DNA of 64,000 nt from Candidatus Omnitrophota bacterium (GTDB lineage: Bacteria; Omnitrophota; Gorgyraeia; JAFGGP01). Below, one piece after another: positions 17,959 through 33,036 of the stretch; within the stretch, counting starts at the first letter, position 1; every line of letters starts with the position of its first letter. The translations under genes and the position numbers were made by a program. The stretch covers positions 66,745 to 130,744 of the forward strand of contig JAFGGP010000030.1 of the NCBI GenBank assembly GCA_016930485.1, given 5' to 3'. A model generated the notes under the pieces. That model did no database searches. It was not told the origin of the DNA and worked only from the letters and a program-made list of their open reading frames with translations.

Positions 17959-18034
17959 ATACTAAGGTGTAATTGCTGCCTATTGTAGCAAAAAAAAATA
18001 ATTTAACAAGTTATTTTCAAGTTCCTGAATATAT

Positions 18035-18066
18035 AAAAAACCCGGCTAGAAAACCGGGTTTTTTAT
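18035..18066 (-). terminator. Rho-independent terminator after the repeat-protein gene (bidirectional in appearance)
   Basis: Stem aacccgg / ccgggtt, flanked by A-runs and T-runs on both sides. Confidence 0.8.
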
Positions 18067-18115
18067 CAAACGGCACCTGCATATTACTATAGTGCCCTTC
18101 CTCGTTGCCGCTGCC

Positions 18116-19759
18116 TTATCGAATAACGATGACTGGATCGTCAAACGGCGGATTTTCCTCAATAACCGTCCATTGCCCCTCGGGGTGCACAACAATCTGA
18201 CATTCGATATAATGGATTTTGTCTTGATATTGTAATATCACCAGTCTCGTCATAACACCAACTAAGCCATCAGGCGTTATATCTTCAGAACCAACGATCG
18301 AGATGTCTTCTTTATCCACGCCAAGGGCGCAAGCAAGGTAGGTACGGGCGGTGAGTTCTGCCATGATTGGATCATGGTTTGGTATTTTTCTTACCGCTGT
18401 CCATTGTGCACCAAAATGGCTGCCAAGGTGGCACTCGATATAATGGACGGTGTCTTGATATTGCAGCACGACTACCCGCATGCTGAGTCCAGCCATACCG
18501 TAAGGGGTTATATCTTCAGAATCTCTGACTGTGATATCGCCTCTATCCACCCCTAGCACATTAGCCAGGTAGCGGCGGGCCGTAAGCTCTGCTATGAAGG
18601 GGTTGTAGGCTGAAATCTCCCGCGTAACAGTCCACTGCGCACCTGGATAAACGCCGATCTTGCATTCGATATAATGAACGGCACCTTGATATTCCAGTGT
18701 AATTACCCTTGTCATAGCACCAAGCAGGCCGCGAGGTGTCACGTCTTCGGAGTCGGTGACCCTGATATCACCTTTGTCAACCCCTAGCGCATCCGCAAGA
18801 TAGGCGCGGGCAGTCAGCCCTGCTATAAGCGGGTCGGATGGTGAGATTTCCCGGATAGCCTTCCATGGCGCATTACGCCTGTCGGTGGCACGCTGACACT
18901 CAATATAGTAGGTTTTACCTTGATATTCCAACAGTACAAGCCTTGTCATGACACCGGTTACTGTCATAACAAGACCGTTCATGGATAGAAACGTTAGATT
19001 TTCGGAACCGATAATCGTAATATCTTTCTTCTTCACACCGAGTTTATCAGCAAGGTAATCACGGGCCGCGAGCTCTGCAGGATGTCTCTCTATCTTTGGT
19101 TCTGGTTTTGGGTTGCGCTCGGGGCCCTGTCTTTGCTGTTTGACAAAACAGCTGCCGTCCCGCTCTATCCAGCCACCGGAACCGTTCGACGTGCCGTAGT
19201 ACAGATCCTTGCCAACCTTGAATGTCACAGTATAGGATTGCAACACAACATTGAGCACTGCATAATTTCCTATAGGCCAATGCGTAAGAGTGCCCGTGCT
19301 GAGATTGGTAAGTGCGATCTCATCGACCGAAATTCCTAATTGTTCGGCCAGTTTTTCTTTCCCGTCCTGGATAACCGCCATGGCAATCTCTCGAAACGCT
19401 TCATAGGTAGGTTTGGGAATATAGGTCCAGACGCCCTTGTTGTATGCCTCCTTGAGTATTTCTTCAATATCTTCTTCGCCCTCTGTTTTGCGCCTGCTAA
19501 ACGGTGATGGTTGTTCTCTATGCTTGTTCCTCATTGCCTCTATATGTTTACGTTTCTCTACCGCGCGGTTTAGTATCGCGTCCTGGCCCAATACATCCCC
19601 TACACTTTGCAGATTATCCCCCGGCTTTCCTTCGCCTGTTTGGGGCTTCGGCGCAGGCGGCGCTGCCCAGGCAAGCTGACTGCATATAAAAAGAATGATA
19701 AGGTTAAGCGTGATTGCCCGAATGGAGAATGCCCTATTGAATGTGTGATACGGTACCAT
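18116..19759 (-). CDS. Secreted protein with four tandem ~77-85 aa PepSY-like repeats
   Basis: ORF 18116..19828. Start set at MVPYHTF (ATG 19757-19759), which has AAGGAGG upstream. Signal peptide ...ICSQLAWA. Four repeats of the form AELTAR.YLA..LGVD+.DI.V..SEDITP.G....MTRV..L.YQ...HYIEC. Confidence 0.7.
   Translation of the reverse strand: MVPYHTFNRAFSIRAITLNLIILFICSQLAWAAPPAPKPQTGEGKPGDNLQSVGDVLGQDAILNRAVEKRKHIEAMRNKHREQPSPFSRRKTEGEEDIEEILKEAYNKGVWTYIPKPTYEAFREIAMAVIQDGKEKLAEQLGISVDEIALTNLSTGTLTHWPIGNYAVLNVVLQSYTVTFKVGKDLYYGTSNGSGGWIERDGSCFVKQQRQGPERNPKPEPKIERHPAELAARDYLADKLGVKKKDITIIGSENLTFLSMNGLVMTVTGVMTRLVLLEYQGKTYYIECQRATDRRNAPWKAIREISPSDPLIAGLTARAYLADALGVDKGDIRVTDSEDVTPRGLLGAMTRVITLEYQGAVHYIECKIGVYPGAQWTVTREISAYNPFIAELTARRYLANVLGVDRGDITVRDSEDITPYGMAGLSMRVVVLQYQDTVHYIECHLGSHFGAQWTAVRKIPNHDPIMAELTARTYLACALGVDKEDISIVGSEDITPDGLVGVMTRLVILQYQDKIHYIECQIVVHPEGQWTVIEENPPFDDPVIVIR
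18119..19078 (-). repeat. Four tandem coding repeats (231-255 bp each) inside the secreted-protein gene
   Basis: Unit boundaries from the protein alignment: 18824-19078, 18593-18823, 18362-18592, 18119-18361. Conserved blocks LTAR.YLA, LGVD, SEDITP, HYIEC, QWT. Confidence 0.8.
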
Positions 19760-20046
19760 GTGAAACCTCCTTGTTGTTATATGCTGCAGCGCCTTTTCAT
19801 CTTTTGTTCTCCTGCTAATGCAAACCAAGCTACCGGTTCATCTTCGGTAGCCTGGCCATCCTTTTTTCTGCGCTATCTAAGGATCCGTAACTTTGCGTCC
19901 CACATTCTCATGTGGTTTGCCTTTTCGTGATGTCCCTATATATACAACCCCGGCCGTTAGAAAACATTACATTATTTTTTTGGTCTTTTACAGGATCGGC
20001 TGGTAACTGCATAAATTTAAAGGAGTTATAGAATCATCGGCGGGAT

Positions 20047-21489
20047 TCACTTTTTGAGGCGTCGTAGGCCTGCCGTGGCTTCTCCGACTTCAAGCGTGGA
20101 AGGATAGTGCGATAAAATCTTCTGATAGGCAGCAATTGCCTCTTGTGGATTGCCCAGTTTTTCTTCCTGGATAATGCCGATGGCACACTGCGCCAGTGAG
20201 GCCCACTTGGAGGTAGGGTACATCTGAATAAGCCTGTCTAATGATTCGATGGCCTCCTTATGCATGGCAAGCTTTTCAAAATACGCGGCGATGAAAAGTA
20301 GTATCTGGGGATCGTTTCTTTCATCGGGGAATTGTTCGACAATGTTATTCAACAAGGAAATACTCTTAAGATGTTTTTTTCTGCTGTTCTCTCTTTTTGC
20401 CCTGCTTGAAAGAGCGAGTGCCTGTGTTGCCAGCTTCTGAACCGGTTCGGGGTATCTGCCATGTACATAAAAATGGACGGGTCCGAAAAGTTCCCGCACT
20501 CTATCTCCTTTGTTGCTTAGAATAAGAGACACCAGTATGCGGCCGATGTCATGAATTTCCTGAAGACGTTCCCATTCACCGTCGGTCATTACTAATGGGT
20601 CTTGGGGTTTTTGATCCGGTTTCACGATTGTTTTCTGCGGCGCCTTTACTAATACGATCTTTTCGTAGGCATGATTCTTTATTTCTACTTCACCGTTGGA
20701 AACACCTAACCACGTTTCTCCTGTAATCGGCTGCACATCCACACAAAAACCCGTACCCCGTACGACAGCGGTTGCGCTCGGTGTTTCGATTGTTATCTGG
20801 GATCCTTTAAATTTTTTATCGGTCTTCACCAAGAGCTTTCCCTGTTCGATTTGTATACATGTCTCACCTTTTCTTCGATGCCTAATCAGCTGTTTGGCAA
20901 CAATGATCGTATTCTCTTTTGCCCGCATTCGATAGAGATTGTCCTGGTCTATATCAACGAAGCTGTACGGGCCTGTTTTTATTTTAGTTCCAGAGGATAG
21001 CTGTATGCCCGCTATTGCAGGTTCCCATCTGTTTTCCTCGGCCCCATATACCTCCGCAACACCTTGAAATGAAATAAGAAGAGGCAAATCTCCCCCGGGT
21101 AAATAACTCAATGCAAATAAAAGTATGATTATACCGGTACTAACAGCCACTTTTACAGGGCGCGGCACCGCAATAATTCCCCAGCGCATCTGATCTAACG
21201 AAATTTTTATAGTACTATAAACCTCGGCGAAGCCTCTCTCTAGTACGCCGAATATCCCCTGCTTTGACATTGTGTTCTTCAGCCTCTCCTGAAAGGCGCG
21301 ATCGTAGCCTTCGGATGGCATCACCTCACTTAATTGCTCAACAGAAGCCCGAAGCATTTCCAGTTCTTTAAGCTGCTCCCGACACGCACTACATTCTCTT
21401 ACATGGCCTCGTATTGCAATCGCTTCCTCGGGAGAACATTCTCCGTCAACATAGAATGACAATCTTGTTTTTTGTATATGCGTTTTCAC
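20047..21489 (-). CDS. Anti-sigma factor (zf-HC2, TM, FecR-like domain, C-terminal TPR)
   Basis: N-terminal HVRECSACREQL zinc-finger anti-sigma motif, one TM helix, a FecR-like central region and TPR-like C-terminus. Start overlaps the sigma-factor stop. Confidence 0.75.
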   Translation of the reverse strand: MKTHIQKTRLSFYVDGECSPEEAIAIRGHVRECSACREQLKELEMLRASVEQLSEVMPSEGYDRAFQERLKNTMSKQGIFGVLERGFAEVYSTIKISLDQMRWGIIAVPRPVKVAVSTGIIILLFALSYLPGGDLPLLISFQGVAEVYGAEENRWEPAIAGIQLSSGTKIKTGPYSFVDIDQDNLYRMRAKENTIIVAKQLIRHRRKGETCIQIEQGKLLVKTDKKFKGSQITIETPSATAVVRGTGFCVDVQPITGETWLGVSNGEVEIKNHAYEKIVLVKAPQKTIVKPDQKPQDPLVMTDGEWERLQEIHDIGRILVSLILSNKGDRVRELFGPVHFYVHGRYPEPVQKLATQALALSSRAKRENSRKKHLKSISLLNNIVEQFPDERNDPQILLFIAAYFEKLAMHKEAIESLDRLIQMYPTSKWASLAQCAIGIIQEEKLGNPQEAIAAYQKILSHYPSTLEVGEATAGLRRLKK

Positions 21490-22106
21490 TACTTGCAGCC
21501 TCCTGATTGCACATAATCGTTCGGATTAATATAGTTCTTCAGCATCTTCCGGGCCCTGTTAAGACGAACGCCTACTGTCTGTTCTGAACAATGTAATATT
21601 CGCCCTGCCTCTTTATATGAGAGTCGCTGCTGTCCACAAAGCAGTAAAACCTCTCTATATTTGACCGGCAATGTATGTATGGCTTCATGCAGTTGTTTTT
21701 GAAGCTCTCTTCTTTCAAGATCTCCACCCAAGTTCCTGCCATCGCCAACCATTTCTCCTAACTTTCTTGTATCCTCTTCGTTAACAGATGTATCTAAGGA
21801 AATCTGCGGACTACTCTTCAAACTTCTCAAGGCGTTCTTGGCAAGATTTGTTGCTATAGTATACATCCAGGATTTTGCCTTCCCCATATTCCGGTACGTC
21901 GCAAGATGTGTATATACCTTAATAAATACCTCCTGGGTCAACTCCTCTGCCGTATGATAACTTCCCGTAAATCTGTATAGGTAATTTAAAATCTGCGTTC
22001 TATAACGCCTGTGCAACATCTCAAAGGCGGTCATGTCACCTGCCTGTGCCGCCAGCAATAACTCCTCGTCCGGTGTCTGCTGTGGGTCTTGATTGCGCTC
22101 TTCCAT
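21489..22106 (-). CDS. ECF-type RNA polymerase sigma-70 factor
   Basis: Region 2 (ELTQEVFIKVY) and region 4 HTH (LSYKEAGRILHCSEQTVGVRLNRARKML). Confidence 0.85.
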   Translation of the reverse strand: MEERNQDPQQTPDEELLLAAQAGDMTAFEMLHRRYRTQILNYLYRFTGSYHTAEELTQEVFIKVYTHLATYRNMGKAKSWMYTIATNLAKNALRSLKSSPQISLDTSVNEEDTRKLGEMVGDGRNLGGDLERRELQKQLHEAIHTLPVKYREVLLLCGQQRLSYKEAGRILHCSEQTVGVRLNRARKMLKNYINPNDYVQSGGCK

Positions 22107-22189
22107 CTGCCCTCATTATATATAACACAAAACTGCGCACTTTATTACATTGTCATAAAAATTATAATGGGAACGGTGCCAATATACAA

Positions 22190-22223
22190 TGAAAAAGGTG
22201 TTGTTCGTATCAACAACACCTTT
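22190..22223 (-). terminator. Rho-independent terminator after the acidic secreted-protein gene
   Basis: Stem aaggtgttgtt / aacaacacctt with a 6-nt loop, then tttttc on the minus strand. Confidence 0.7.
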
Positions 22224-22258
22224 TGTTGCGGGCTGTTACTATCTATTGTCGGAGGGCA

Positions 22259-23296
22259 CTACTCTTTACCTTCATCAAGCACAAATATCGCCGTCATCGC
22301 TTCATGTATTTTTATAATCATATTTCCCTGTACATCTTTTATCAGTTCATTCATTTCGACGAGAAATTGCGCTTCGGCCTCTTGCATCTTTTTGATATAC
22401 ATCCTGCGTGCATTAATAAGAACGTCCTGTCGCAACCGCAGTTCTCTCTCAAGGAGTTCCCGGGCCTGTGAAATATACAGATCTTCCTTGCTGATTTGCC
22501 TGGGTTCCTGCTCGGGAGAAACAACATCTCCCGCTTCATCATCGCAAGCAACAGCTATCTCCTGGAGTTGCTCAACGGCATAACGCAACATAATCCTTTT
22601 TTCTTTGTCACTTAACATGCCGTCCTCCCCCGCAAAATAGGTAACAGGATCACTTTCATCACTCCACCATGCGGGCTTTTCCGAAAGTATAATAGCCGAG
22701 AGCTGATCATAATATGCCTTGGAAGATTCACTGTATTCCTTCAGGCATTCCTCCCGTCCTGCCTCAAGCTGTTCGTGTAATATGCGAATCTCCTGCATTA
22801 ACGGTTCATTGCGAGGGACGTCGGTGCCTTCCAAGGTGATTTCTGAAATTATAAAACCGGGGATTGTCTCCTTTTCAAAATCTACCTCAATCGCAATCTC
22901 TTCTGTTTCCTCCTCAGACCCAAAATTACCTATGTGCGTAGCACCCCCTTCTTTTTCTGCGACCCCGGGTTCTTCCACATCTGTATCAATGTCCACTATT
23001 TTTCCATCTGTTACGACAATCGTCACATCCCGTTCACCTATACCTATTTCTATTGGCTCATTCTTTGAAGGCGCATTCCCCCCTCCCCTTATATCTTCCA
23101 GTTCCTTGAGTTTTTTAATATATGCCTCCTGGCTTTCAAACTCCGCGGCATTCTCGCCTGGTTTAACCATAGGGGCCCCGGAAGAAACCTCTGTTTGCGG
23201 CGCTTCTACTCCATCAGCACTCCCTGCCCCGAGACATATCAAAGATGTCAGGAGGGTTAGACATGCGACTATATGTCTGAACTCGGCATCTCTCAT
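22259..23296 (-). CDS. Secreted acidic protein, function unknown
   Basis: Signal peptide (ACLTLLTSLICLGAGSA). Very E/D-rich. I recognise no domain. Terminator downstream. Confidence 0.5.
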   Translation of the reverse strand: MRDAEFRHIVACLTLLTSLICLGAGSADGVEAPQTEVSSGAPMVKPGENAAEFESQEAYIKKLKELEDIRGGGNAPSKNEPIEIGIGERDVTIVVTDGKIVDIDTDVEEPGVAEKEGGATHIGNFGSEEETEEIAIEVDFEKETIPGFIISEITLEGTDVPRNEPLMQEIRILHEQLEAGREECLKEYSESSKAYYDQLSAIILSEKPAWWSDESDPVTYFAGEDGMLSDKEKRIMLRYAVEQLQEIAVACDDEAGDVVSPEQEPRQISKEDLYISQARELLERELRLRQDVLINARRMYIKKMQEAEAQFLVEMNELIKDVQGNMIIKIHEAMTAIFVLDEGKE

Positions 23297-27697: not shown

Positions 27698-29563
27698 CTA
27701 TATCCTGATCCTCTCCAGCGAAACAATGATATCCTCCGCCTCGTTGACACTCTGGGTAAACCGGCCCCTGTCCTGCTTCACATCGGTAAACCGCATAAGG
27801 TCGCACTCCTCTAACAGTTTCTTTGTCTTGTGAATTAGCTCTTCAGAAACTCCCCGTCCCCGTAGCGTGTCGCAGAGTTCTATCGTGGTCATACCGGAGG
27901 CGGAGAGATTAAGTCTGTCAGCGATATACTCGGTTATCGCCCGGTACACCTCGCGGTATACGGCCTCTCCCGAATCCTGCTCTTTGAGTCTCTGCAGGGC
28001 CTTCTTTAGTCGTTTACGCGCAACCTTATGCGCCCGATGCAGCCGCGCATACCGCACATCCTGCGTCAATTTCCTGCGGTGCCGGGCATCGACAAAACAG
28101 ATAAACAGTATAAGCGGGCTCAAAAGATGGGCATATATAAAAAGCCTGTTTCTGTAAAGCGGTGTCTGTAACCCAGTCATCTGTCTTAATTCGGTCTTGA
28201 TATAACGAATATCCGTGGCAATAAGTGCAATCTCTTTTTTCTCAGTGTATGTTAGACTGGGCACAACCGGGCCTGTCGCCTGAAGGGCCTCCTGCGGTTT
28301 CACGGTTACGTTAATCGCGATCGGCTGTGTCGTAATTGTGCCATACTCTTTCGTCCTAGGGTTAAAAAAATGATAGGTGAGCGGCTCGAGTGTTGCCGTT
28401 CCGGCGCTCTTTGGAATTAATACCTTTTGAAAGGTTTTTTTGCCCCCTACTACATAATTATTTTTTGTGACCTCCTCGGAGCTCCCTGAATCGTAGACTT
28501 TACACATGTCCGGAACCGATACAACCGGATCCGAGAGGGTCCTTATATTGCCCCGACCTTCGATGCTTATAGTAAGTGTTACGGGATCGCCTTCCTGGAC
28601 TTCGAGTCTGTCGGCCTTGACCGACATGTCATACTGACCTACCGCCCCTGCAAAATCCCGGGGCCTGCCTTGTTCGGGAAGCGCCTTTACCTCAAGGGTG
28701 ATCGGGTCGGTGGTAAGAATAACCGGTTGACCCCGGCGAAAAATACTCATAGGATCCCGGTCGAATATATCAAAGGCGCTTCTTCTAAAAAAATCCTCTA
28801 TACGGTCAACACTTGCCTCAAGACGTGCAGGACCAATAACGTACTGGCCGGGCGCCGTCGGAAAGAGGGCGGTCTTTATCTCGGTAACCAGGTACCGTCT
28901 CCCGTTAATAACCTTATAGTACTTATTTTGAGGAGGCATATCCTCTGCCCAGAAACCAGTCGTGGAAGGCGGCGTATAAACTGGATTGTCAAACAGTTGA
29001 ACCGCCTGATAGAAAGCAAAGGTCAACGTCACCTGTTCATTGACATACGGCGTCAGATTGTCGACGTAGGTCTCTATAAACATCTCCTGTGCCCTGCCCT
29101 GTTCCTGGTCGCCGGTCTGTGGCAGGGACGGCTGCGATGACGGTCCTCTGGAAGACGGTGCCTGCGCATACCCTTGAGGGCCGCTGTCTGTCACCTCGAT
29201 CTCTAACGGCTCTGTTGAATACGTCTGCCCGTCATACGTAACACGGATGGGGCCTATCGTTTTCTTGCCGGTGGCGTTCGGCACGAGTATATAGGTAAAC
29301 GTCACCTGAGCAAATACCTGGGTATTGTGCACTGAGATATTCTGCGCGCGTCCCGAAGAGTAGGCGGTAAAATCGGCAAGGGGAGGAAACTGCGGCTCCG
29401 GAATCCTGCCCGTAGCCCCGGAGATAACTACGGTAAGCGTCACCGTCTCATTAATGGTCATCCTGTCTCTATCGAGAGAGGCCGCTATGGAGATATCGGC
29501 GGCAGAGGCCACTCCTGTGAACAGCCATAGACCGTAGACCGTAGACCATAGACCATAGACCAT
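27698..29563 (-). CDS. batD: BatD-like oxygen-tolerance protein
   Basis: ORF 27698..29632. The likely start, MVYGLWSTVYGLWLFTGVASA (ATG 29561-29563), gives a signal peptide. Large extracytoplasmic region, TM helix and C-terminal ECDLMRF block, as in BatD. Confidence 0.75.
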   Translation of the reverse strand: MVYGLWSTVYGLWLFTGVASAADISIAASLDRDRMTINETVTLTVVISGATGRIPEPQFPPLADFTAYSSGRAQNISVHNTQVFAQVTFTYILVPNATGKKTIGPIRVTYDGQTYSTEPLEIEVTDSGPQGYAQAPSSRGPSSQPSLPQTGDQEQGRAQEMFIETYVDNLTPYVNEQVTLTFAFYQAVQLFDNPVYTPPSTTGFWAEDMPPQNKYYKVINGRRYLVTEIKTALFPTAPGQYVIGPARLEASVDRIEDFFRRSAFDIFDRDPMSIFRRGQPVILTTDPITLEVKALPEQGRPRDFAGAVGQYDMSVKADRLEVQEGDPVTLTISIEGRGNIRTLSDPVVSVPDMCKVYDSGSSEEVTKNNYVVGGKKTFQKVLIPKSAGTATLEPLTYHFFNPRTKEYGTITTQPIAINVTVKPQEALQATGPVVPSLTYTEKKEIALIATDIRYIKTELRQMTGLQTPLYRNRLFIYAHLLSPLILFICFVDARHRRKLTQDVRYARLHRAHKVARKRLKKALQRLKEQDSGEAVYREVYRAITEYIADRLNLSASGMTTIELCDTLRGRGVSEELIHKTKKLLEECDLMRFTDVKQDRGRFTQSVNEAEDIIVSLERIRI

Positions 29564-29788
29564 CCGCCTCCGGCTGATGAAAAAAGTCTTCGGTTGATTG
29601 CCTGTGGTTTGTGGTTTGAAAAAATATACCATGGTTTATGTTTGAATCTGTTAAGGAGTAAAGTTTTTTATTTCACGACTCGCTCTGCGCTCGCTTGAAA
29701 AGTATGACCTTTGAGTTCTTCGATAGTCGGGCGCCTGCCCTCCGTAGCCTTGGCGAAGGAGGGATCTTCGGTCTATGGTCTATGGTCT
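29526..29788. repeat. AGACCRT heptamer array and its perfect 19-bp inverted partner, flanking the batC-batD junction
   Basis: Five tandem AGACCRT heptamers (with flanking partial words) at 29526-29563. agaccatagaccatagacc (29543-29561) is the exact reverse complement of ggtctatggtctatggtct (29770-29788). Confidence 0.9.
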
Positions 29789-29794
29789 TGTATA

Positions 29795-30658
29795 TTACCA
29801 GTCTTTTTCAACCCTGATGGCGTCCCTGGAAATAGTGGTTTTCTGTAACTCCTTTAACTGGTCTTTCTCCGCCTGACCCATGGCATTCAGTATTCGCTCG
29901 GCATCCTCTTTTGTCATCTCACTGCCTTGACCCTGTTTTTGTTGTGAAGAGGCTTGAGCCGCTTCTTTTTCTTCTCCGCTACCCTCTTCATTTTTATTGC
30001 CTTCTTCTTCCTCGCCAACTTCCCCGGAAGATTCTTCGGATCCATTCTCCTTTTCTTCCTCATGAACGGCCTGCGTCTTTTCTTTTTCCCCTTTTTCTCC
30101 CTGCTTTTCTTCCGACTGATTCGCTCCCTCTTCCTTATGTTGTGTCCCGCTCTGTGCACCTTGAGCCTGCTGCTGTTGTTGCGACATCCCTGTGCCTTCT
30201 TTTTTCTCGGCAGACTCCTTTAACTTTTTCTGTATCATCTCTATATTATACTTCGCGTCTTCGTCATCATCCCGCACCTCGAGACACTTTTTATAGTTTT
30301 CCAGGGCCTCCAGTAATTTTCCGGACCGGTAATTCGTATTTCCCAAATTATAATAGGTATCAGCCTGAAGCGCTATATCTTCGGTTCCGAGGGCCTGGGT
30401 ATATTCCTTTTCGGCCTCGTCAAACTTACCCTGCCGGTACAGTGCGTTTCCTATATTGTAGTGAATCTCGCTGGATGCCGGTGAGTCTATCTGTGCATCC
30501 CTGTAGAGCCTGAGCGCTTCATCGCTCTCTCCCCGTTCCAGGAGCCCGTTGGCCTCTTTGACCTTCGAGCCTACAGAGGCGGCCTCTGCAGTAACACAGC
30601 ACAGTATCGCTATAACCGTTATACCACAAAGGGTAAAAAGACGCCCTGTAGCCTTCAT
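29795..30658 (-). CDS. batC: BatC-like TPR protein with acidic low-complexity tail
   Basis: Start MKATGRLF overlaps the batB stop (ATGA). Signal peptide, TPR repeats (YNIGNALYRQGKF, YNLGNTNYRSGK), then an E/K/G/Q-rich low-complexity region. Confidence 0.7.
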   Translation of the reverse strand: MKATGRLFTLCGITVIAILCCVTAEAASVGSKVKEANGLLERGESDEALRLYRDAQIDSPASSEIHYNIGNALYRQGKFDEAEKEYTQALGTEDIALQADTYYNLGNTNYRSGKLLEALENYKKCLEVRDDDEDAKYNIEMIQKKLKESAEKKEGTGMSQQQQQAQGAQSGTQHKEEGANQSEEKQGEKGEKEKTQAVHEEEKENGSEESSGEVGEEEEGNKNEEGSGEEKEAAQASSQQKQGQGSEMTKEDAERILNAMGQAEKDQLKELQKTTISRDAIRVEKDW

Positions 30659-31677
30659 GATACCGCCCCCTTTTTGCGCAAGCTTACCTTCGGAACTCCG
30701 CACATCTCGATCGCCAACAGTAACCATGAGAGGATCAGGGGGATCTTAAACCGCTCCTCATAGCGTGTATAGACCCGGTCGCTCAGCTCCTTTTTTTCCA
30801 TGCTGGATATGTCGTCGTAAATGCTGTCAAGCTCGAGCTGCCCCGCAGTAGACCGGTAGTATTTCCCGTTGGTTGTTAACGCGATTTTCTGCAGGGTATA
30901 TTCGTCGAGCTTGCTCACAACAGGCGTCCCGTCGGCATCCTTCTTGTGTCCGATCACATTCCCAGCCTCATCTCTTATAGGAATAGGCTCTCCGGAAGGC
31001 GTCCCAATACCGATGGTGTATATCTTAATACCCTCTCTCTTCGCCTCCTCCGCCTCATTGATCGCGTCCCCCGTATGACTCTCGCCGTCGGTCATAAGAA
31101 TAAACACCTTATGTTTTCTCTCTTTCTTGATAAAGGCATCCCGTGCCGCCTGCACCGCCTTTGCCACCGAGGTACCGCCCACCGGGATGTACCCCGCGTC
31201 TATCTGCTGGACAAACATGCTGCATGCCTCATAATCCAGCGTCAGGGGACACTGCACAAAGCTCTCGCCGGCAAACAGTACAATGCCGATCCTGTCCCCT
31301 TTCAGTTTTTTTATCAGGCCTGAGACCTCCCGCTTGGCAGCAGCCAGGCGCGTCGGCTTTACATCCTCGGTAAGCATACTATCGGATACATCGATGGCGA
31401 CAATAATGTCGATCCCGCGTCTCTTCTCTATGCCTAATGTGGCGCCGAACTGCGGTCTGGCTATCGCCACAACCAGAAAAGCGCACGCGCAGACAATTAG
31501 GCCCGATCGCACCTTCTGTCGTGTGCGCAACGGGCGGGGAAACAGTCTCTCAGCGCCCGCCGAATCGGCAAAACGCAGCCTGAGCCGTTTCTTTACCTGA
31601 AAGACATAGACATAAAAAATAACGAGCGCCGGAACCAGTGCTAGTAGATTTAAAAAATGAATCGCTCCCCACTTCAT
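30655..31677 (-). CDS. batB: BatB-like von Willebrand factor A protein
   Basis: N-terminal TM helices, a vWA MIDAS-like DVSDSM and a C-terminal TM helix. Confidence 0.8.
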   Translation of the reverse strand: MKWGAIHFLNLLALVPALVIFYVYVFQVKKRLRLRFADSAGAERLFPRPLRTRQKVRSGLIVCACAFLVVAIARPQFGATLGIEKRRGIDIIVAIDVSDSMLTEDVKPTRLAAAKREVSGLIKKLKGDRIGIVLFAGESFVQCPLTLDYEACSMFVQQIDAGYIPVGGTSVAKAVQAARDAFIKKERKHKVFILMTDGESHTGDAINEAEEAKREGIKIYTIGIGTPSGEPIPIRDEAGNVIGHKKDADGTPVVSKLDEYTLQKIALTTNGKYYRSTAGQLELDSIYDDISSMEKKELSDRVYTRYEERFKIPLILSWLLLAIEMCGVPKVSLRKKGAVS

Positions 31678-31695
31678 AGTTAACCTTTCGTATTA

Positions 31696-32043
31696 GTCAC
31701 ATGTCGCCTGTCACAGGTCACCAGTTTTTAAATCAAAAATCAAGGTGCAAAAATCAAAATGGCATATCAAAATGTAAAAATTAATAAAGTCACCTGGTCG
31801 CCGGTCACATGTCACAAGTAAAAACCGCAAACCTAATTTTGAACCTTTTGTGTCATTCCGGGCTTGGCCCGGAATCCATTATTTCGCTTTTTCCCTTTCG
31901 GTGGCTTCCCGCTTCCGCGGGAATGACACAGGATTTGTTCATTTTGAATTTTACATTTGCCTGCCCTGAGTTGCATCGAAGGGTCATTTTGATATTTGAT
32001 GTTTGATATTTAATTTTACTTACCCGTGATTTTGTGACTTTGT
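31696..32043. repeat. 348-bp composite element between batA and batB (GTCAC arrays, AAATCAA/TTTGATA arrays, central ATTCCGGG-type hairpins)
   Basis: GTCAC arrays at 31696-31722 and 31789-31818 flank an AAATCAA array. atatcaaaatg (31764-31774) is an exact complement of cattttgatat (31985-31995). tgtgtcattcc (31849-31859) is an exact complement of ggaatgacaca (31920-31930). Local hairpins are attccggg-cttgg-cccggaat and ttcccgc-ttcc-gcgggaa. gtgattttgtgacttt sits at the right end. Confidence 0.85.
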
Positions 32044-33036
32044 CTAGGGTAATACCCGCAACGCGGTCCCGGATAGAACAATCTCGCTCAGTAATAGCAG
32101 CAGCGCCGGGATCAGAACCGTATTTGCCCGTTCGTCATACTCGACGTACTCCCGGGTCTGAATCTCCGTCTTTTCCAGTCTGTTAATATGTTCGTATATC
32201 TCGCCGAGTCCCTTTTCATCCTTTGCCCTGAAGTACAACCCGCCTGTGATCCGGGCGATTTCGTCCAGCGTCTTTTCATCGATCTCTGTTGCCATGCGCA
32301 CATACTGCCTGCCAAAAATCGGATGGTCAACCGGATAGAGTGCGCCGCCCGGCGTACCTGCGCCGATCGTATATATCTTGATGCCGAACGTCTTGGCAAC
32401 CCGCGCCGCGGTAATCGGGTCGATCTCGCCCTGATTGTTCACGCCGTCGGTAAGCAAAATAATGACCTTGCTCTTTGCGGTCGAGTCCTTCAGGCGATTC
32501 ACCGCGGTGGCGATCGCCGTACCGATGGCCGTGCCGTCGGCGATCATGCCGATGGTCACCTCGTCGGTAAGACGCTTGAGAATGCCGTAATCCAGGGTTA
32601 ACGGGCACTGTGTTATGGCGTACCGCGCAAAGACAACCATGCCGACGCGGTCGTGCTGCCGTTCATCGATAAATTTCTTGATCACCTCTTTTGCCGCACC
32701 GAGCCGGTTCTGCGGCTTAAAGTCTTCGGCCTTCATGCTGCCCGATATGTCAAGGGTCAGGATAATATCAACACCCTCGGTTATCAGCTCTTCCTCGGTT
32801 GTGCCGTACTGTGGCCGTGAAAGCCCGACAACCATAAGGGTTACAACGGCGACGCGCAACACAAAAGGAACGATACTTAAGCGCCTGCGCAGCGAGGGTG
32901 GGATCCGCCCAAAAGGGGCGGTCTGCGAATAGGTCACGCCGGCACGGTTCTGTGAAAACTGCCGGCGAAATATTACTATCAGCACCAGCCCTGCGAGCAG
33001 CAACAGATAGAGAGGATCGGCCAAACGCATATTCAT
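32044..33036 (-). CDS. batA: BatA-like von Willebrand factor A protein
   Basis: N-terminal TM helices, MIDAS DISGSM and a C-terminal TM helix. Start overlaps the upstream gene by 4 nt. Confidence 0.8.
   Translation of the reverse strand: MNMRLADPLYLLLLAGLVLIVIFRRQFSQNRAGVTYSQTAPFGRIPPSLRRRLSIVPFVLRVAVVTLMVVGLSRPQYGTTEEELITEGVDIILTLDISGSMKAEDFKPQNRLGAAKEVIKKFIDERQHDRVGMVVFARYAITQCPLTLDYGILKRLTDEVTIGMIADGTAIGTAIATAVNRLKDSTAKSKVIILLTDGVNNQGEIDPITAARVAKTFGIKIYTIGAGTPGGALYPVDHPIFGRQYVRMATEIDEKTLDEIARITGGLYFRAKDEKGLGEIYEHINRLEKTEIQTREYVEYDERANTVLIPALLLLLSEIVLSGTALRVLP

Follow-up and report, generated by a model that had tools for sequence, protein, structure and literature searches.

Within a 64,000-nucleotide stretch of DNA from a Candidatus Omnitrophota bacterium (contig JAFGGP010000030.1; hereafter, the window), three consecutive minus-strand genes encode an extracytoplasmic function (ECF) sigma factor, an anti-sigma factor and a 547-aa protein built of tandem repeats and predicted to be secreted. 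We consider it probable that the repeat protein is under dual control, whereby ECF-dependent initiation of transcription would be combined with anti-termination dependent on cyclic di-GMP (c-di-GMP), a proposal that draws on motif statistics and structure prediction. By its sequence, the 287-bp spacer between the anti-sigma and repeat genes is a regulatory leader, which carries an ECF-type promoter motif, a c-di-GMP riboswitch and a competing hairpin; of all regulatory features at the locus, the riboswitch is the strongest. In an initial annotation of this DNA, the three genes and their domains had been placed and called correctly. The length of the spacer was right as well, but the riboswitch inside had gone unnoticed. 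The elements of the locus, in the direction of transcription, are as follows.

22113–22151, minus strand: ECF-type promoter motif before the sigma gene (GTAAT at 22144–22148, N17, GTT at 22124–22126)
21489–22106, minus strand: ECF (group 4) sigma factor gene, 205 aa (Sigma70_r2, Sigma70_r4_2, NCBIfam)
20047–21489, minus strand: anti-sigma factor gene, 480 aa (Pfam zf-HC2, FecR, TPR_6)
19935–19973, minus strand: ECF-type promoter motif before the repeat-gene leader (GTAAT at 19966–19970, N17, GTT at 19946–19948)
19843–19931, minus strand: c-di-GMP-I (GEMM-I) riboswitch aptamer (Rfam RF01051)
19823–19857, minus strand: alternative 13-bp terminator-like hairpin, the candidate expression platform (folding energy, shuffles)
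19766–19772, minus strand: Shine-Dalgarno sequence AAGGAGG, 6 nt ahead of the ATG at 19759 (read from the sequence)
18116–19759, minus strand: gene for the secreted repeat protein, 547 aa (open reading frame, ORF)

Riboswitch and competing hairpin in the leader

The aptamer matches RF01051 over the entire model (positions 1–87 of 87); its score of 57.6 bits exceeds the gathering threshold of 35 (E = 1.2e-08 for the whole window), and no other Rfam match in the 64 kb reaches gathering level. The conserved blocks GGCAAAC, GACGCAAAG and ACCGAA are all present, together with a hairpin capped by a GAGA tetraloop; from the end of the aptamer to the ATG of the repeat gene, the distance is 84 nt. The model of the “GGC variant,” RF03167 (54.6 bits), was considered and set aside: the canonical RF01051 is preferred because it passes its cut-off whereas RF03167 does not, and because the variant-defining column holds an A, not a G.

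In the Vc2 riboswitch of Vibrio cholerae, G20 and C92 have roles in ligand contact (PMC6140456). Candidate equivalents of G20, A47 and C92 in the window aptamer are, respectively, the unpaired G before the G-C pair (19921), the A after ACGC (19894) and the CC of ACCGA (19846–19847); Vc2 numbering was put onto the consensus columns by inference, in a manner consistent with the “GGC” consensus of RF03167 differing at the A47 column. An A at Vc2 position 20 would suggest cyclic GMP-AMP (c-GAMP) as the ligand. With the equivalents of all three nucleotides in place, the predicted ligand is c-di-GMP rather than c-GAMP.

The 3′ strand of the aptamer also forms the 5′ arm of the alternative 13-bp hairpin, which is followed by UUUGCAUU. 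This hairpin has a folding energy of -22.8 kcal/mol (z = -4.8), none of 200 shuffled sequences folds as well, and it is found in the minimum free energy fold of the whole leader, too. Because the ligand-bound aptamer would keep the shared strand from the terminator hairpin, the riboswitch is predicted to be an ON switch, the direction being judged from the aptamer/terminator design. The same design recurs in a second leader, at locus L011, where an RF01051 match of 48.7 bits (L011:7473–7546) has the junction CCGAA(A)GATGAA in common with the window leader, and the same aptamer strand is part of a 22-bp stem followed by U8, that is, a canonical terminator. Downstream of the L011 riboswitch (L011:7705–11816) come a 92-aa ORF and then the gene for P0005, a protein of 1271 aa with the same repeat domain. 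It lies behind a sigma-70-type promoter, TTGACA-N17-TATACT, and there is no sigma/anti-sigma pair nearby.

A metagenome scan for the riboswitch subtype yielded 120 stretches, of which, according to a regular expression for the 5′ core of the aptamer, approximately six contain real-looking GEMM-I aptamers; none of these precedes a gene with the repeat domain. Two of the metagenomic loci, L051 and L079, carry GEMM-I riboswitches with the same CCGAAAGATGAA junction before ORFs for a small protein and short Flp-pilin-like proteins (identified by eye), an arrangement consistent with surface appendages being regulated by c-di-GMP in further uncultured bacteria.

The shared promoter motif and the sigma/anti-sigma pair

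The spacer had been singled out in the initial annotation as the place to look for an ECF-type promoter, and a motif of this type, G[GT]AAT-N17-GTT, is present at 19935–19973. The leader site reads GTAAT-N14-GGGGTT and the site upstream of the sigma gene GTAAT-N14-TGTGTT. The leader motif ends 4 nt from the start of the aptamer. The predicted transcription start, at ~19937–19940, is just before the aptamer; no sigma-70-like site was found on the minus strand of the spacer. Blind enumeration of bipartite k-mers in intergenic regions had given A-rich noise only, and the motif was then spotted by eye and tested formally. Searched on both strands with at most one mismatch, the degenerate pattern matches the window only at the two sites, with 0.25 matches expected by chance, and the leader site fits it without a mismatch. 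Because this pattern was fitted to the same two sites, an independent test was needed, for which a position weight matrix (PWM) was built from six sites in other loci only. Among 127,924 window positions, this external matrix ranks the sigma-gene site first and the leader site third; the second-ranking position (30610–30648) was dismissed as lying inside a coding region. When one locus was left out, its expected sites ranked 1 and 2 (L013), 1 and 2 (L004), and 1 and 26 (L016). In Corynebacterium, promoters of the ECF sigma H/E factors follow the consensus GGAAT-N18–19-GTT (PMC10012870), to which the window motif conforms except for a spacer one base shorter.

The assignment of the two regulatory genes is borne out by their domains. 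The sigma protein matches Sigma70_r2 (5.6e-19) and Sigma70_r4_2 (6.4e-15) and lacks region 3 in the Pfam scan, leaving regions sigma-2 and sigma-4 only; it scores 103 bits against the NCBIfam sigma70-ECF superfamily model TIGR02937 (cut-off 42.9). No NCBIfam match at the equivalog level was obtained for it, and FecI-type models are not among the best 25 of its 95 NCBIfam matches. The start of the anti-sigma gene overlaps the sigma stop codon by 1 nt. From the N-terminus, the anti-sigma protein consists of a zf-HC2 domain (PF13490, 2.9e-09) of the zinc-binding anti-sigma (ZAS) type, one hydrophobic, presumably membrane-spanning segment (assigned by eye), a FecR domain (PF04773, 1.2e-08) and C-terminal TPRs (TPR_6, 2.4e-10). 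Its HxxxCxxC motif, H29-x3-C33-x2-C36, is invariant in an alignment across three homologues. Judging by these domains, the pair is an ECF (group 4) sigma factor with its co-encoded cognate anti-sigma factor. The sigma H/E group, too, is controlled by anti-sigma factors of the ZAS type, RshA and RsrA among them.

Relatives of the anti-sigma factor with ~35% identity are encoded on six other contigs, most of them labelled Omnitrophota and one Planctomycetia, and the sigma/anti-sigma pair is conserved in all six loci (L003, L004 and L013–L016). In each, the anti-sigma gene is followed, after a gap of 140–410 bp, by a sizeable ORF on the same strand, several of these ORFs having a signal-peptide-like start (by eye). 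The downstream ORFs are unrelated to each other by BLAST and by the unit hidden Markov model (HMM) built from the repeats, and by the same two methods none of the six encodes a homologue of the repeat protein; one has a beta-helix and an Ig domain, one GLUG motifs, and the others are without a Pfam match. The protein downstream in L003 was examined as a candidate homologue (BLAST E = 0.13 to a unit) and rejected, since scans with the unit profile gave no match. The pair is likewise missing from the vicinity of all five members of the domain family whose upstream genes are visible (P0006, P0021, P0003, P0005 and P0023). Thus, conserved linkage, on which the initial annotation had staked its reading beforehand, is seen neither among the six related pairs nor among the five domain relatives. 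Nevertheless, one ECF-type bipartite motif occurs before both the sigma and the repeat genes. This indirectly supports the earlier suggestion of the repeat protein as an output of the module, and speaks for a regulatory connection in the present genome despite the unconserved linkage. The comparison of the loci further suggests a conserved sigma/anti-sigma cassette with exchangeable downstream genes.

Three further features of these loci may be recorded. In L016, a small cysteine-rich, zinc-ribbon-like ORF (MNKIICKKCGSAGYSASEVALCPCGGRC...; approximately L016:4289–4430) separates the promoter motif from the downstream gene. Two near-identical promoter-like sequences (TTTGTTATATTT...TGTTTAT) are found at L003:5139–5177 and L003:1724–1762, one before a 552-aa gene and the other before two small ORFs further downstream, with a Peptidase_S8 gene in between. 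Finally, L014 has another sigma-like gene, with a small ORF after it, ~3 kb downstream of the first cassette on the same contig (L014:10004–11333).

Several observations weigh against dual control. On the RNA side, the hairpin tail UUUGCAUU is just moderately U-rich, and the terminator scan did not call the 13-bp hairpin, because its 9-nt loop exceeds the limit of the scan. The riboswitch is present at only two of the seven domain-family genes with upstream sequence, being found neither at the five other domain-family loci nor at the other sigma/anti-sigma loci, and no diguanylate cyclase was seen among the window ORFs checked (a search of the window for GGDEF/EAL motifs produced false leads only). 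On the promoter side, three loci (L003, L014 and L015) show the motif weakly or not at all, the training sites of the matrix were first chosen by eye in the other loci, and part of the motif (TGTTATATA) can be read as an extended -10 element. The repeat gene, moreover, is not linked to sigma/anti-sigma pairs elsewhere.

Alternatively, the shared motif could be an extended -10 promoter (TGnTATATA) of the housekeeping sigma factor, in which case the repeat gene would be under c-di-GMP alone and its adjacency to the sigma pair would be without regulatory meaning. We regard this as unlikely, even though TGTTATATA occurs within several of the sites, the riboswitch leader of L011 has a sigma-70-type promoter with no pair nearby, and related pairs lack the repeat gene beside them. 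The GGAAT/GTAAT block is fixed 14 nt from nGnGTT in eight sites, and no TTGACA-like -35 element is found at 17 nt. A general promoter should recur many times among ~55 genes, whereas high scores are seen at two window sites only; furthermore, both site positions recur in orthologous loci. Initiation by the ECF sigma factor followed by the riboswitch is the reading retained below.

The repeat protein, its domain and the surroundings of the locus

The 547-aa protein is annotated at NCBI as hypothetical protein JW844_04935 of a Candidatus Omnitrophica metagenome-assembled genome. Its parts are the following.

19661–19759, minus strand: predicted signal peptide, aa 1–33, ending AWA|AP (by eye from the translation)
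19139–19405, minus strand: N-terminal domain, aa ~119–207 (order of elements in the AlphaFold2 model; HMM match to the helix)
18836–19090, minus strand: repeat unit 1, aa 224–308 (unit alignment; HMM, i-E = 2e-39)
18605–18835, minus strand: repeat unit 2, aa 309–385 (unit alignment; HMM)
18374–18604, minus strand: repeat unit 3, aa 386–462 (unit alignment; HMM; modelled with a predicted local distance difference test score, pLDDT, of 93.8)
18119–18373, minus strand: repeat unit 4 and a short C-terminal tail, aa 463–547 (unit alignment; HMM)

The signal-peptide-like N-terminus, of which aa 4–31 form a single helix in the AlphaFold2 model, points to Sec-dependent export and to a periplasmic or surface location. 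The four tandem units of 77–85 aa described in the initial annotation are confirmed, and have 26 invariant columns in common; the repeat region does start at 18119 but extends to 19090 rather than 19078. The units are not recent. Any two of them are 45–60% identical in amino acids and 55–64% in nucleotides, the same codon is kept at just 39–53% of the conserved residues, and Tandem Repeats Finder detects no tandem repeat in the DNA; by this degree of divergence, the repeats are old. AlphaFold2 modelling of the full-length protein (mean pLDDT 71) gives all four units one common fold. A more diverged N-terminal copy had also been proposed, and the region of aa 119–207 does show the same order of elements as the units in the model (helix 119–141, strands 149–157, 174–182 and 185–191; pLDDT ~65–90). 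The unit HMM, however, matches just the helix within it (i-E = 0.018), so that the region is a plausible candidate for a fifth, diverged copy.

Modelled separately from an alignment of 15 sequences (pLDDT 93.8), unit 3 begins with a helix of 16 residues, which leads through a short turn into four antiparallel strands. For this confidently predicted fold, Foldseek finds nothing in the PDB at E ≤ 1e-3; weak matches of the unit model are to cystatin-like, monellin and NTF2-like folds (template modelling, TM, score ~0.5). With the full-length model, TM scores are ~0.1–0.2, and YpeB, a protein with tandem PepSY domains, appears at rank 49 (E = 6.9e-3). Sequence comparisons gave little more. Neither the four units nor the 15 aligned family members have a Pfam match at E ≤ 10, PepSY included, which leaves the earlier description of the units as PepSY-like without support at the sequence level; a search of PDB sequences with the unit profile returned a chance match only (E = 1.5), and the 547-aa protein matches nothing but itself among 5.8 billion clusters. 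The comparison with PepSY (PF03413) is one of general architecture: both are small modules of a helix plus an antiparallel sheet, arranged in tandem in exported proteins, and there is the weak Foldseek match to YpeB, whereas the units have no sequence-profile match and the structural match is not significant.

A search of 1.84 billion cluster representatives with a profile of the four units retrieved 15 proteins at E ≤ 0.001. About eight of the 15, mostly large proteins, contain the full-length domain; several of these have signal-peptide-like N-termini (by eye), and the domain region is without a Pfam match. All relatives with an organism name are from Candidatus Omnitrophota. The rest of the 15 match only in the helix of a different, cysteine-containing repeat. 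By this count, the 77-aa domain is a rare family without prior description, although a small repeated domain within an exported protein is unsurprising in itself. The cysteine-containing tandem repeat (WPDxCLG...C; P0009, P0010 and P0012–P0014) has just the N-terminal helix motif AR..LA..LGV....V in common with the repeat domain, shows no Pfam match in the members checked, and may represent a distant sister family.

With one helix on an antiparallel sheet, and with the cystatin-like, monellin and NTF2-like matches and that of the full-length model to YpeB, the units could be taken for PepSY- or cystatin-like inhibitor modules and the whole protein for a secreted, multi-headed inhibitor of proteases; the gene in the equivalent position in L003 is, moreover, followed by one for a Peptidase_S8. 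This is quite unlikely, given that no PDB match of the unit passes E ≤ 1e-3, that the full-length TM scores are so low, that PepSY is not matched by any of the 15 members, and that there is no protease gene among the ORFs adjoining the repeat gene in the window. Still less probable is the partner role raised in the initial annotation, in which the repeat protein would bind the FecR/TPR domains of the anti-sigma factor in the periplasm and serve as a sensor or feedback component, not only as an output: the protein-binding TPRs and the FecR domain, the latter predicted to lie outside the cytoplasm, the predicted export of the repeat protein and the adjacency of the two genes would suit such a role, but a specific partner should co-vary with the anti-sigma factor, which is conserved at ~35% while the downstream genes are mutually unrelated.

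As for the surroundings, the sigma gene is directly preceded by a gene (22259–23296, minus strand) whose product, an acidic protein of 345 aa, starts with a segment resembling a signal peptide and has no Pfam or NCBIfam match; a 12-bp hairpin terminator (22200–22235) is located between this gene and the sigma promoter. Judging by translated ORFs, the neighbouring genes include an apparent H+-pyrophosphatase, a dCTP deaminase and a ribonucleotide reductase, and one neighbour is a mechanosensitive-channel-like protein by Pfam. Downstream of the ribonucleotide reductase gene there is an aerotolerance-operon-like cluster of BatD, VWA, VWA/BatA and TPR genes (27698–33036, minus strand). In the gap that separates the repeat gene from that of the H+-pyrophosphatase (17984–18126), several Rfam matches far below the cut-offs were obtained (rimP leader, E = 0.018, and others); probably, this is leader or terminator sequence, either structured or rich in AT.

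Proposed circuit and comparison with known systems

Collectively, the leader, the shared motif and the domain content of the pair can be joined into the following scheme. The FecR/TPR portion of the anti-sigma factor would perceive an envelope signal and, in response, set the sigma factor free. The freed sigma factor would initiate at its own promoter and at that of the leader (GTAAT-N17-GTT), provided that it uses the motif, as we infer; the motif upstream of the sigma gene would then amount to autoregulation. The transcript of the repeat gene would open almost at once with the c-di-GMP-I riboswitch. Without the ligand, the 3′ strand of the aptamer would pair into the 13-bp terminator-like hairpin and transcription would stop; with c-di-GMP, the aptamer would keep this strand, allowing RNA polymerase to read into the repeat-protein gene, the product of which would be exported and act outside the cytoplasm. 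With two gates in series, the protein would be made only when the envelope signal and high c-di-GMP coincide. As to its function, c-di-GMP riboswitches, including those of Clostridioides difficile, control surface adhesins (PMC6366702). Because they often control adhesins and surface proteins, we favour, by analogy, a role in attachment or the sessile state, for example, as an adhesin or as a matrix or envelope scaffold.

A broader generalization can be offered, although it is tentative and, in our judgment, somewhat unlikely in this full form. The ZAS-FecR-TPR cassette might be a portable driver of Omnitrophota, the GGAAT-N17-GTT promoter of which is wired to a different lineage-specific secreted cargo in each genome; in the present case, the cargo would combine a new Omnitrophota-restricted domain with a c-di-GMP riboswitch, forming an AND gate of envelope signal and second messenger that controls attachment.

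We know of no described case of an ECF promoter combined with a GEMM-I riboswitch. A full-text literature search retrieved no c-di-GMP riboswitch placed directly behind an ECF-type promoter, nor did a literature search turn up a report of a c-di-GMP riboswitch in Omnitrophota. No experimental work on regulation in Omnitrophota turned up in the literature consulted here either. Should the dual gate be true, an envelope-stress pathway and c-di-GMP signalling would be combined at a single promoter and leader; should it be false, the locus would be an ordinary c-di-GMP-regulated gene for a secreted protein beside an ordinary ECF pair. Omnitrophota are uncultured, and the locus offers a concrete, testable circuit, with a short RNA, a predicted ECF promoter and a small, confidently modelled domain. 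In addition, with the same cassette lying ahead of unrelated secreted proteins in related genomes, it might serve to locate lineage-specific surface proteins across Omnitrophota.

The sigma factor, the anti-sigma factor and the riboswitch belong to known families, whereas the 77-aa domain is without a described one. The cell-surface signalling module proposed in the initial annotation is not supported in its classical form. The anti-sigma factor shares the FecR domain (PF04773) with the FecI/FecR/FecA system, but its sigma-binding N-terminal part is a zf-HC2 domain of the ZAS type and its C-terminus consists of TPRs; moreover, there is no TonB-dependent transducer among the ORFs within ~5 kb (ORF translations, with Pfam scans of some). 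By its gene content, the locus is not a FecIRA system. It resembles the systems of the sigma R, sigma H and sigma E type, with their GGAAT-N18–19-GTT promoters, in that the sigma factor has regions 2 and 4 only, an HxxxCxxC anti-sigma factor is encoded next door, and a G[GT]AAT-N17-GTT motif is found upstream of the sigma factor’s own gene. RsrA and RshA are soluble, however, whereas the anti-sigma factor of the window is predicted to span the membrane and carries FecR and TPR domains. The likeness of the leader to known c-di-GMP-I riboswitches, such as Vc2, extends to the full-model match above a curated cut-off, the position ahead of the coding sequence, within the 5′ leader, for a protein predicted to be exported, and the competing hairpin as the expression platform, and the C. 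difficile riboswitches of surface adhesins are related to it in their role. It differs from them in starting within a few nucleotides of an ECF-type promoter motif, in its weak terminator tail, in its Omnitrophota host, and in the regulated protein, which belongs to an undescribed family.

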